This document shows, piece after piece, positions 60,938 through 62,675 of a stretch of DNA of 64,000 nt. The position numbers were made by a program, and so were the translations under genes. Below the pieces are notes generated by a model. That model was not told where the DNA came from and searched no databases. It saw only the letters and a program-made list of their open reading frames with translations. Every line of letters starts with the position of its first letter. Within the stretch, counting starts at the first letter, position 1. Location of the stretch: the NCBI RefSeq assembly GCF_000026545.1, contig NC_011601.1. One strand, given 5' to 3'. This stretch comes from Escherichia coli O127:H6 str. E2348/69. Lineage in GTDB: Bacteria > Pseudomonadota > Gammaproteobacteria > Enterobacterales > Enterobacteriaceae.

Positions 60938-61016
60938 GCCAGAACAGAGGTGGTTTCTGGACGTATTCCTTCCTGAAGTCGGTTTTCTGGCGTTGTTGTT
61001 AAGTCTCGGGGTCAAC

Positions 61017-62675
61017 GTGTTGACCCCGTTGACGGCCTTCGCGGGAGTGCGGTTGCGCTGGCCTGCCATGATGCGACTCACTTGCATCGGCATTCTGGCG
61101 CAGTTCGCGCTCCTGCTGCTCGCCTTTGGCGTACTGACGTATTGTTTTCTCATCAGCGATTTCTCGGTCATTTATGTCGCCCAACATAGCTATAGCCTGC
61201 TGTCGTGGGAACTCAAACTGGCGGCGGTGTGGGGCGGTCATGAAGGTTCGCTGCTGCTTTGGGTGCTGCTGCTTTCCGCCTGGAGCGCGCTGTTTGCCTG
61301 GCATTATCGACAGCAAACCGATCCGCTATTTCCGCTGACGCTAGCCGTTTTATCTCTCATGCTCGCCGCACTGCTACTGTTTGTGGTGCTGTGGTCCGAT
61401 CCCTTCGTACGGATATTTCCGCCAGCAATCGAAGGCCGCGATCTCAATCCGATGCTGCAACATCCCGGTCTTATCTTTCATCCACCGCTGCTTTATCTCG
61501 GCTACGGCGGTTTGATGGTGGCGGCGAGCGTGGCGCTGGCGAGTTTACTGCGCGGCGAGTTTGATGGTACCTGCGCCCGAATTTGCTGGCGTTGGGCACT
61601 ACCTGGCTGGAGCGCATTAACAGCGGGGATCATCCTCGGTTCCTGGTGGGCCTATTGCGAACTGGGCTGGGGCGGCTGGTGGTTCTGGGATCCGGTGGAA
61701 AACGCCTCTTTACTACCCTGGCTTTCTGCCACAGCGCTGCTGCACAGTTTATCCCTGACACGCCAGCGGGGGATTTTCCGCCACTGGTCGCTGTTGCTGG
61801 CGATAGTTACTCTGATGCTGTCGCTGCTGGGCACGTTGATTGTCCGTTCTGGCATTCTGGTTTCGGTTCATGCGTTCGCGCTGGATAACGTCCGCGCCGT
61901 GCCGTTGTTCGGCCTGTTTGCACTGATTAGCCTTGCGTCTCTGGCTCTGTATGGCTGGCGAGCGCGGGACGGTGGCCCGGCGGTGCGTTTTTCGGGGTTA
62001 TCGCGGGAAATGTTAATCCTCGCTACGCTGTTGCTGTTTTGCACAGTGCTACTGATCGTGCTGGTGGGAACGCTTTATCCGATGATTTACGGCCTGCTGG
62101 GCTGGGGACGCCTCTCCGTTGGCGCACCGTATTTTAACCGCGCGACGTTACCGTTTGGTATGTTGATGCTGGTGGTGATTGTGCTGGCGACGTTTGTCTC
62201 TGGCAAACGCGCGCAGCTTCCGGCGCTGCTGGCGCATGCGGGCGTGCTGTTATTTGCCGCGGGGATCGTGGTTTCCAGCGTCAGCCGTCAGGAGATCAGC
62301 CTGAATTTACAGCCGGGTCAGCAGGTGATGCTGGCAGGATACACCTTCCGTTTTGGGCGCCTCGATCTGCAAGCCAAAGGCAATTACACCAGCGAAAAAG
62401 CGATAGTGGCGCTGTTTGACCATCAGCAACGCATTGGTGAATTAACGCCGGAGCGGCGTTTTTACGAAGCACGTCGTCAGCAAATGATGGAACCGTCAAT
62501 TCGCTGGAATGGCATCCATGACTGGTATGCGGTCATGGGCGAGAAAACCGGAGCGGATCGTTACGCTTTTCGTTTGTATGTACAAAGCGGTGTGCGCTGG
62601 ATCTGGGGGGGAGGATTGTTGATGATTTCGGGCGCATTGTTAAGCGGATGGCGGGGAAGGAAGCGCGATGAATAA
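61017..62675 (+). CDS. nrfE: CcmF-like haem lyase NrfE (552 aa if GTG 61017 is used; TTG 60993 is the ORF-track alternative)
   Basis: CcmF/NrfE-type membrane protein with WGGWWFWDPVEN tryptophan-rich motif; no ATG start available, start uncertain. Confidence 0.85.
   Translation: MLTPLTAFAGVRLRWPAMMRLTCIGILAQFALLLLAFGVLTYCFLISDFSVIYVAQHSYSLLSWELKLAAVWGGHEGSLLLWVLLLSAWSALFAWHYRQQTDPLFPLTLAVLSLMLAALLLFVVLWSDPFVRIFPPAIEGRDLNPMLQHPGLIFHPPLLYLGYGGLMVAASVALASLLRGEFDGTCARICWRWALPGWSALTAGIILGSWWAYCELGWGGWWFWDPVENASLLPWLSATALLHSLSLTRQRGIFRHWSLLLAIVTLMLSLLGTLIVRSGILVSVHAFALDNVRAVPLFGLFALISLASLALYGWRARDGGPAVRFSGLSREMLILATLLLFCTVLLIVLVGTLYPMIYGLLGWGRLSVGAPYFNRATLPFGMLMLVVIVLATFVSGKRAQLPALLAHAGVLLFAAGIVVSSVSRQEISLNLQPGQQVMLAGYTFRFGRLDLQAKGNYTSEKAIVALFDHQQRIGELTPERRFYEARRQQMMEPSIRWNGIHDWYAVMGEKTGADRYAFRLYVQSGVRWIWGGGLLMISGALLSGWRGRKRDE

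Follow-up and report, generated by a model that had tools for sequence, protein, structure and literature searches.

A probable near-cognate CUG start codon for the haem lyase gene nrfE in Escherichia coli and related enterobacteria

Translation of the nrfE gene of E. coli O127:H6 str. E2348/69 probably starts at CUG, a near-cognate codon at position 60957 of the window (the whole 64,000-nucleotide stretch that was analysed; all features described here lie on its + strand), giving a NrfE protein of 572 amino acids. Initiation would be directed by a Shine-Dalgarno (SD) site and probably aided by termination of nrfD translation. The protein would begin with (f)Met-Asp-Val-Phe-Leu-Pro-Glu-Val-Gly..., opening transmembrane (TM) helix 1 with the PE.G motif that is typical of the CcmF/NrfE family. 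Judged from the sequence, CTG 60957 is the only possible nrfE start upstream of PE.G, it is preceded by an SD site and it is invariant. We infer that the CUG is read by fMet-tRNA, that coupling to nrfD contributes to initiation and that a low expression results.

The nrfE locus and its gene models

The annotation of the region was taken from RefSeq record NZ_CP059840.2 (E2348/69), which is 100% identical to the window. According to the ORF list and to this record, nrfD occupies positions 59981-60937 and terminates with TAA 60935-60937. The best supported nrfE coding sequence extends from 60957 to 62675 and encodes the haem lyase subunit of NrfEFG, as indicated by its matches to NF007691, PF01578, PF16327 and 6ZMQ. 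The nrfABCD-EFG operon context was confirmed in RefSeq, and the same gene order is found at the Salmonella and Citrobacter loci. In E. coli, NrfA needs NrfEFG to acquire the haem of its CXXCK site, and NrfE is dedicated to this haem (PMC12285233, PMC3601427). The subfamily profile NF007691 matched the protein over its full length and scored 1156.9 bits (cut-off 394), and the Pfam domains PF01578 (cytochrome c assembly) and PF16327 (CcmF C-terminal) were both detected.

Among the closest known systems is CcmF, the System I holocytochrome c synthase of E. coli and T. thermophilus (6ZMQ), a paralogue that shares with NrfE the fold, the WWD motif and the conserved histidines. Residues W238-D245 (WGGWWFWD), H175, H263, H305 and H427 are invariant in 68 CcmF/NrfE sequences, and comparison of the NrfE model with CcmF 6ZMQ gave a TM-score of 0.80. 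The N-terminus of CcmF also carries PE.G (MMPEIG in Citrobacter CcmF). However, CcmF genes place an ATG two codons before this motif, whereas nrfE of the clade formed by Escherichia, Salmonella, Citrobacter and an Enterobacter isolate has CTG, and NrfE is shorter than CcmF.

Public gene calls for nrfE are split four ways, into proteins of 572, 560, 552 and 540 amino acids. RefSeq/PGAP starts the gene at CTG (572 amino acids) in E2348/69, in a BL21 derivative, in a divergent E. coli strain, in Salmonella and in Citrobacter; in the identical record the product is WP_071791941.1, 'heme lyase CcmF/NrfE family subunit' (NF007691), running from CTG 60957 to 62675. This is a homology-driven pipeline call with unstated evidence, and the PGAP call and the NCBIfam profile are not mutually independent. 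The CTG start itself is thus already annotated, and what is new with respect to the RefSeq model is the support from conservation, SD site, population and structure, plus a hairpin. In K-12 MG1655 (NC_000913.3 b4074, NP_418498.1), the same gene in the same operon, with junction DNA that differs from the window by one spacer base, is annotated from a GTG located 60 nt downstream, which leaves out 20 conserved residues, PE.G and half of TM helix 1. The length of 552 amino acids that the initial annotation gave for a start at this GTG agrees with b4074 (1659 nt).

The present results are mainly an annotation correction of modest interest. The K-12 b4074 model, part of the most-used E. coli reference annotation, probably truncates NrfE by the 20 conserved residues with which TM helix 1 starts, and cloning, tagging or modelling NrfE from the K-12 start would then yield an incomplete protein. 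The four-way disagreement between the calls illustrates a systematic weakness in start-site prediction.

Coding sequence upstream of the canonical start codons

The last in-frame stop upstream of nrfE is TAA 60924-60926, and the reading frame is open from 60927. The initial annotation had the frame open from just after the nrfD stop; it is indeed open there, but it opens already 9 nt before the end of nrfD. Scanning of the window sequence located no in-frame ATG, GTG or TTG between 60927 and 60992, which bears out the earlier remark that nrfE has no ATG start, and no in-frame ATT, ATC or ATA is available upstream in E. coli or Salmonella. The canonical starts are, in order, TTG 60993 (560 amino acids), TTG 60996 (559 amino acids), GTG 61017 (552 amino acids) and TTG 61020; TTG 60993 and GTG 61017 had been given as the first ones, and both are present, but TTG 60996 had been passed over. 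Chance alone would produce 22 consecutive codons lacking a canonical start with a probability of roughly 0.3, which is unremarkable. What goes beyond chance is that, as read from the sequence comparisons, conserved coding sequence reaches upstream of every canonical nrfE start.

The 20 codons that are absent from the K-12 gene model (60957-61016) encode (M)DVFLPEVGFLALLLSLGVN, comprising PE.G and the N-terminal half of TM helix 1. Their variable sites are distributed as 6/1/10 over the three codon positions, without any indel, a pattern resembling the 38/22/59 of the downstream nrfE coding sequence, and synonymous codon differences exceeded non-synonymous ones in every pairwise comparison. The preceding nrfD-nrfE spacer, of 19 nt in the window (60938-60956), differs in length between genera (1, 8, 19 or 26 nt in 12 sequences plus 15 metagenome junctions). 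This pattern of conservation argues that the 20-codon extension is translated.

The family alignment points to the same N-terminus. Among 68 CcmF/NrfE homologues, the PE.G motif always has G9, and E7 occurs in at least 90% of them; a canonical start lies 1-6 codons 5' of the motif in 74 out of 75 homologues. In nrfE, only CTG 60957, five codons before P6, is located within this interval; TTG 60993, GTG 61017 and TTG 61053 all fall outside it. NCBIfam NF007691 aligns NrfE residues 2-572 to profile positions 1-573, TIGR03145 places residue 5 at its profile position 2, and most tblastn matches to NrfE start at query residue 5. In the AlphaFold2 model, residues 5-33 form a single helix with pLDDT values of 95-98 (98 for residues 11-20), which a start at GTG 61017 would split midway, leaving 13 residues of TM helix 1. 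The 6ZMQ alignment obtained from the sequence search of solved structures begins only at residue 46, so that TM helix 1 is supported by the family alignment and by the AlphaFold2 model.

CTG 60957 and its Shine-Dalgarno site

The codon CTG 60957-60959, at which the RefSeq/PGAP coding sequence starts, is the most likely nrfE initiation codon. It is invariant in the 26 clade sequences compared (11 plus 15 from metagenomes, covering Escherichia, Salmonella, Citrobacter and the Enterobacter isolate), although these are related by descent and the invariance therefore counts fewer independent events than sequences. A 37-mer spanning the SD site, the CTG and eight codons had an exact match in 5412 of 5421 E. 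coli records. With a method validated by a positive control, the CTG within this 37-mer showed no single-base variant in E. coli records, and no canonical or synonymous codon replaced it among 5426 E. coli genomes; seven records lack the exact 37-mer. Five of the seven Leu codons among the first 24 nrfE codons vary synonymously, whereas CTG 60957 is fixed. In one Salmonella sequence (a), C. werkmanii, Citrobacter FP75 and the Enterobacter isolate, a TGA located one codon 5' of the CTG closes the nrfE frame. Outside the clade, the codon aligned with CTG 60957 is a GTG start in an Atlantibacter-like metagenome locus (L086) and TTG, within TTG-ATG, in Pectobacterium.

The SD site GAGGTGG (60947-60953) was recognized by its duplex energy with the 16S 3' tail. 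Its duplex with a 9-nt anti-SD has -8.2 kcal/mol, within the top 1.4% of window positions; with a 13-nt anti-SD the energy is -12.8 kcal/mol, and a level of -11 kcal/mol or below is attained at fewer than 1.7% of the positions in the window. The arrangement GGTG-N4-CTG is common to E. coli, Salmonella, Citrobacter and the Enterobacter isolate (AGGTGAT). In every lineage in which CTG is the sole option the SD energy, computed with the 13-nt anti-SD, lies between -9.9 and -13.7 kcal/mol, and the two lineages with no SD in front of their CTG (about -3 kcal/mol) carry instead an in-frame TTG overlapping the nrfD stop. Such a TTG overlap is seen in C. sedlakii. This would amount to a compensation pattern, with a strong SD where CTG is the only start and otherwise a TTG at the nrfD stop. 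The traits of a near-cognate start coincide at this site: conserved coding sequence 5' of all canonical starts, a frame closed just 5' of the CTG in four lineages, a conserved CTG exchanged only for GTG or TTG in outgroups, and an SD site at functional spacing.

Literature searches on the nrfE start codon or on a CTG start returned nothing relevant. In reporters, CUG initiation in E. coli amounts to 1-2% of that of AUG (bioRxiv 10.1101/063800), and the E. coli initiation machinery strongly discriminates against CUG (PMC11497404). With such a poor initiator, the arrangement should hold the haem lyase low relative to the structural NrfABCD. Initiation would be directed by the strong SD (GAGGUGG, GGUG-N4-CUG), and ribosomes finishing nrfD, whose stop lies 19 nt upstream, would probably help. 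The proposal in the initial annotation that a non-canonical start may reflect translational coupling or low-level expression is plausible, the coupling being to nrfD.

A known E. coli gene with a near-cognate start is infC (AUU), whose initiation is low and IF3-sensitive behind a good SD. By analogy, nrfE would also place a conserved codon other than AUG, GUG or UUG behind a good SD. However, the nrfE codon is CUG rather than AUU, and nrfE has no evident autoregulatory logic. The role of IF3 in start-codon discrimination is described in one report (PMC9723500). If the CUG start is real, E. coli and Salmonella would have in nrfE a naturally conserved case of CUG initiation. The gene could then be used to study how a near-cognate start is offset by a strong SD and by the closeness of an upstream stop, and how one operon limits a biogenesis enzyme relative to the substrate complex that it also encodes. 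To our knowledge, few naturally conserved CUG-initiated genes are documented.

A hairpin in the early codons and the downstream start codons

A perfect inverted repeat, CGGGGTCAAC / GTTGACCCCG, was located by repeat search and folding at 61007-61028, where the RNA would form a hairpin with a stem of 8-10 bp and with GTG 61017 in its loop. The 46-nt fold has a dG of -20.9 kcal/mol (z = -3.55). The hairpin was found in four species of the CTG clade (z from -2.9 to -4.4) and is absent in three outgroups (z from 0.1 to 1.1). Hairpin and CTG start co-occur in Escherichia, Salmonella, Citrobacter and the Enterobacter isolate, and both are missing from the Atlantibacter-like, Pectobacterium and Budvicia sequences. 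The 8-bp core is invariant across all clade sequences, and eight of the nine pairs never vary, which makes a covariation test uninformative. Codons that never vary synonymously are enriched among the first 24 codons (10/19 versus 13/107, Fisher p = 2e-4).

An Rfam search of the region returned only a chance miRNA match (E = 1.2), and no T-run, intrinsic terminator call or promoter-like site was found at the hairpin. By these searches the hairpin corresponds to no curated Rfam family and to no intrinsic terminator, and its invariant stem offers no covariation support. The palindrome GTCAAC-N2-GTTGAC was also rejected as a repeated protein site; it occurs as a single copy in the window, with near matches at chance level.

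Together, the CUG start, its strong SD and the hairpin, which is specific to the clade and lies 51 nt downstream, might act as a single conserved module of post-transcriptional control by which the NrfE:NrfABCD ratio is fixed at a low value, a tentative proposal that we regard as rather doubtful. In such a module the rarely translated hairpin could act as a barrier to 3' exonucleases or as a processing site that stabilizes the nrfABCD mRNA. Alternatively, it could mask internal GUG or UUG starts, or make nrfE expression sensitive to initiation fidelity (the IF3 level).

The canonical codons around the hairpin could be used in addition to CUG 60957, the full-length protein being accompanied by an N-truncated isoform initiated at GUG 61017, UUG 61020 or UUG 61053. 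A weak primary start leaves scope for internal initiation, GTG 61017 and TTG 61020 are kept in 10 and 11 of 11 clade sequences, respectively, and TTG 61053-61055 is preceded by the SD GGGAG (-6.9 kcal/mol). The latter codon is also the start of the 540-amino-acid models ('MRWPAMM...') that are common in ENA, Logan and UniRef entries (P0005 and relatives). However, the conservation of GTG 61017 and TTG 61020 is confounded by the hairpin, in whose loop they lie, and is accounted for by the hairpin together with the conserved protein sequence GVNVLTP. Moreover, the GGGG in front of GTG 61017 is locked into the stem, CAG, CGG or CTG stands in place of TTG 61053 outside Escherichia, and a function for a protein lacking TM helix 1 has no support. 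Dual starts are hence improbable.

Somewhat less probable still is the K-12/UniProt model, in which GTG 61017-61019 is the sole start of a 552-amino-acid NrfE and 60938-61016 is an untranslated spacer of 79 nt. A curated annotation, a canonical codon and its presence in 10 of 11 clade sequences speak in its favour. Against it, the supposed spacer evolves like coding sequence and without indels, whereas the length of the real spacer ranges between 1 and 26 nt. The stretch also encodes the family-invariant G9 and E7, and a start at GTG 61017 would leave only 13 residues of TM helix 1. The codon is replaced by CTG in two lineages (Enterobacter sp. BIGb0383 and metagenome locus L100), and its sole SD-like element, the GGGG within the hairpin stem, is weak (-5.7 kcal/mol). 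GTG 61017 is therefore probably the internal codon of Val21, and its choice as the nrfE start in the initial annotation was probably wrong: the 20 codons upstream are conserved as protein and carry PE.G, and RefSeq starts at CTG. That annotation had itself named a different start in orthologues, or a frameshift, as evidence that would speak against its choice, and the comparison of orthologues did reveal a different start.

Initiation at TTG 60993 or TTG 60996 (60993-60998), giving 560 or 559 amino acids, is very improbable. These are the first ATG, GTG or TTG codons past the upstream stop, but they lack an SD (-3.4 and -3.0 kcal/mol), they read CTG/CTA or TTA/CTG in other species, and PE.G and a third of TM helix 1 would be lost; they are probably internal Leu codons.

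An N-terminus without its own initiation, through a prfB-like NrfD-NrfE frameshift or readthrough or through an out-of-frame mini-ORF (GTG 60950, eight codons, ending at TGA 60974-60976) followed by a frame shift, can practically be dismissed: the nrfE frame does open 9 nt before the nrfD stop and a GTG-to-TGA mini-ORF is found in Salmonella too, but the offset is +1 in E. coli and +2 in Salmonella, with intervening in-frame stops and no shared slippery sequence, the mini-ORF peptide varies (I/S/V/L, R/H) while nrfE-frame codons 2-5 are conserved, and GTG 60950 is missing in C. sedlakii and in one S. enterica sequence (b). Translation from CUG 60957 is the preferred reading.

At its 3' end, nrfE overlaps the ATG of nrfF by 8 nt (62668-62675, from the ORF list and the RefSeq annotation), a coupled arrangement that is usual in the nrf operon.

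Reading frame and proposed starts of nrfE

The window is 100% identical to NZ_CP059840.2 (E. coli E2348/69) and carries the nrfABCDEFG operon. The nrfD gene occupies positions 59981-60937 and terminates at TAA 60935-60937. The nrfE frame, closed by a TAA at 60924-60926, is open from 60927; the initial annotation placed its opening just after the nrfD stop, but it opens 9 nt before that stop. The codons at 60927-60992 (cgg tgg cgt aag cca gaa cag agg tgg ttt CTG gac gta ttc ctt cct gaa gtc ggt ttt ctg gcg) include no in-frame ATG, GTG or TTG. The canonical starts that follow are TTG 60993 (560 aa), TTG 60996, GTG 61017 (552 aa) and TTG 61020. 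Frame reading thus bore out the claim that nrfE lacks an ATG and first offers TTG 60993 and GTG 61017, TTG 60996 having been left out of that list, and the 552-aa length from GTG 61017 is indeed that of the curated K-12 record (b4074, 1659 nt).

Four starts are public for this one gene, yielding proteins of 572, 560, 552 and 540 aa. CTG 60957 (572 aa) is used by RefSeq/PGAP for E2348/69 itself and for two other strains checked, and the cluster of this model (P0001) has 5145 members. TTG 60993 comes from a mechanical ORF list, GTG 61017 from the K-12 record, and TTG 61053 (540 aa, 'MRWPAMM...') from many ENA, Logan and UniRef entries. Judged by sequence comparison, CTG 60957 is quite probably the nrfE start and the best explanation of the data. 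As the CTG model is already in RefSeq, the probably correct answer is public; no paper on the nrfE start was found in the literature searched. The result amounts chiefly to a corrected annotation in a reference genome, together with a conserved, probable natural CUG start and an easily testable clade-specific hairpin.

Conservation of the N-terminal extension

Eleven sequences were aligned: three E. coli strains, E. albertii, two S. enterica lineages, C. sedlakii, C. amalonaticus, C. werkmanii, Citrobacter sp. FP75 and Enterobacter sp. BIGb0383. Between CTG and GTG 61017 the alignment contains no indels, and the variable sites fall at codon positions 1, 2 and 3 in the numbers 6, 1 and 10, the same pattern as in the downstream coding sequence (38/22/59). 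The amino acid changes within these 20 codons are few and conservative (V/I, F/L, V/A/I). Conservation ends exactly at the CTG; the sequence between it and the nrfD stop measures 1, 8, 19 or 26 nt depending on the lineage and is otherwise unrelated. The alignment indicates translation of the 20 codons that precede GTG 61017. Selection acts on this extension at the protein level, and no canonical start is able to supply it.

NrfE is a CcmF paralogue that, with NrfF and NrfG, attaches haem to the CXXCK site of NrfA (PMC12285233, PMC3601427). Among 80 CcmF/NrfE loci surveyed across Proteobacteria, tblastn matches mostly start at residue 5 of the 572-aa query. In 74 of 75 homologues the first hydrophobic helix begins with a PE.G-type motif that has a canonical start (mostly ATG, in a few cases GTG) 1-6 codons upstream, the typical N-terminus being MIPE[IL]GH. 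Two residues of the extension stand out across 68 aligned sequences: all of them have G9, and at least 90% have E7. Residues 2-572 align to positions 1-573 of the NCBIfam profile NF007691, and residue 5 falls on position 2 of TIGR03145, a separately curated NrfE model. The AlphaFold2 model (mean pLDDT 88.6, pTM 0.90; TM-score 0.80 to the solved CcmF structure 6ZMQ) places residues 5-33 in a single helix, with pLDDT 98 for residues 11-20. A start at GTG 61017, the choice of the initial annotation, would break this predicted helix at residue 21 and discard 20 codons conserved as coding; that choice is not supported.

CTG 60957 and its ribosome-binding site

The CTG is invariant in 11/11 clade sequences and in 15/15 metagenome nrfE junctions, the latter retrieved with a pattern leaving out the CTG codon itself, unlike the Leu codons among the first 24, five of seven of which vary synonymously. 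A 37-mer (60946-60982) spanning the Shine-Dalgarno (SD) site, the CTG and 8 codons matches exactly in 5412 of 5421 complete E. coli records, and the nine possible single-base variants of CTG in this context are all missing from complete E. coli genomes, searched by a concatenated-query method that worked in a positive control. Four of the 5421 nrfD-nrfE junction matches lie on records typed as plasmids, and seven records have the junction region without the exact 37-mer. The junction reads TAAGGTGAT(A/T)T CTG GAC in S. enterica (a), C. werkmanii, Citrobacter FP75 and Enterobacter sp., where a TGA one codon 5' of the CTG ends the open frame. The position of the E. coli CTG is taken by a GTG in an Atlantibacter-like locus (L086) and, in Pectobacterium, by a TTG followed by an ATG; Budvicia has an ATG two codons 5' of PD.G. 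The simplest history would be an NTG to CTG change in the ancestor of the Escherichia/Salmonella/Citrobacter group. At L086 (ENA ERZ27312852 k141_2243, 272-1990) the first ~230 NrfE residues are Atlantibacter-like (93% identity to a partial A. subterraneus NrfE) and the remainder is near E. coli; the locus is a recombinant, or else a chimeric product of metagenome assembly.

For the SD GAGGTGG (60947-60953), pairing to the 16S 3' tail comes to -8.2 kcal/mol when a 9-nt anti-SD is used, which ranks in the top 1.4% of window positions, and to -12.8 kcal/mol for a 13-nt anti-SD. The SDs of GTG 61017 (-5.7 and -7.1), TTG 60993 (-3.4 and -5.7) and TTG 61053 (-6.9 and -7.3) are weaker at both lengths. 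GGTG-N4-CTG is common to E. coli and the AGGTGAT lineages, the spacer otherwise differing. In every lineage with CTG as sole option the SD is at least as strong as -9.9 kcal/mol. No SD precedes the CTG in C. sedlakii and S. enterica b (about -3 kcal/mol); these two carry an in-frame TTG that overlaps the stop codon of nrfD instead (TTGCATAAC CTG), and C. sedlakii has a GTG at codon 3 as well. Such reciprocity is expected of a CTG that works as a start, though weakly. The TTG looks like a re-acquired canonical, coupled start. At the corresponding search loci, L005 (1501-1520) and L088 (1501-1512), the spacer is down to 1 nt and the overlapping TTG (TTGCATAA) would give the N-terminus MHNLD...

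We propose that fMet-tRNA would initiate on CUG 60957, with help from the strong SD and from ribosomes that have just terminated on nrfD, whose stop lies 1-26 nt upstream. In E. coli reporters, initiation at CUG reaches ~1-2% of the AUG level (bioRxiv 10.1101/063800), and the E. coli initiation machinery disfavours this codon (PMC11497404); a fidelity role of IF3 in initiation is mentioned in PMC9723500. Because CUG initiates weakly, NrfE may be held scarce relative to NrfABCD. The earlier idea of translational coupling or low expression is therefore kept, with the start itself moved 60 nt upstream.

The internal hairpin and neighbouring frames

A perfect 10+10 inverted repeat (CGGGGTCAAC/GTTGACCCCG, 61007-61028) lies within nrfE codons 17-24, with GTG 61017 in its loop; the fold over 46 nt has a dG of -20.9 kcal/mol (z = -3.55). 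It buries a GGGG that could serve as SD of GTG 61017, which argues against a start there. Dual initiation, with full-length protein from CUG 60957 and a truncated isoform from an internal start, is improbable. The 8-bp core is invariant in all clade sequences, four synonymous third positions included, and 10 of 19 codons are synonymously invariant in the first 24 codons vs 13 of 107 in the next 176 (Fisher p = 2e-4); the stem pairs being invariant, the clade sequences hold no covariation to assess. E. coli, E. albertii, Salmonella and Enterobacter sp. have the hairpin (z -2.9 to -4.4); the Atlantibacter-like, Pectobacterium and Budvicia sequences, all with canonical starts, lack it (z 0.1 to 1.1). 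This co-occurrence with the CTG start amounts to one evolutionary event and is a lead only. The region matches no Rfam family, and neither a promoter nor a terminator signature was seen at the site. In E. coli the flanks lengthen the stem (GUUGUUAA pairs with UUGACGGC), an extension not conserved in Salmonella, and the 3' side (61019-61034) contains GTTGAC twice as a direct repeat (GTTGACCCCGTTGAC).

An out-of-frame GTG 60950 inside the SD opens an 8-codon mini-ORF (60950-60976, GTG GTT TCT GGA CGT ATT CCT TCC TGA, stop at 60974-60976) overlapping the nrfE start. Salmonella has a counterpart and two lineages have none. As a source of the NrfE N-terminus it was rejected, since its peptide is not conserved, the nrfE frame is, and those two lineages do without it; its TGA comes from the invariant CCT GAA of nrfE codons 6-7, and the most plausible view is that the mini-ORF is a by-product of the SD. 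A frameshift that would fuse NrfD to NrfE is excluded because the two frames are offset by +1 in E. coli but by +2 in Salmonella and stops intervene.

NrfE-NrfF fusion proteins appeared in the protein search (proteins P0006-P0024, P0061 and P0073-P0118; locus L088). Those of E. coli (650-665 aa, mostly single-member clusters) are possibly sequencing errors; clusters of 737-740 aa come from C. werkmanii, C. cronae, C. braakii and some records labelled Salmonella enterica. The two genes overlap by 8 nt (62668-62675), so that a small indel would fuse them.
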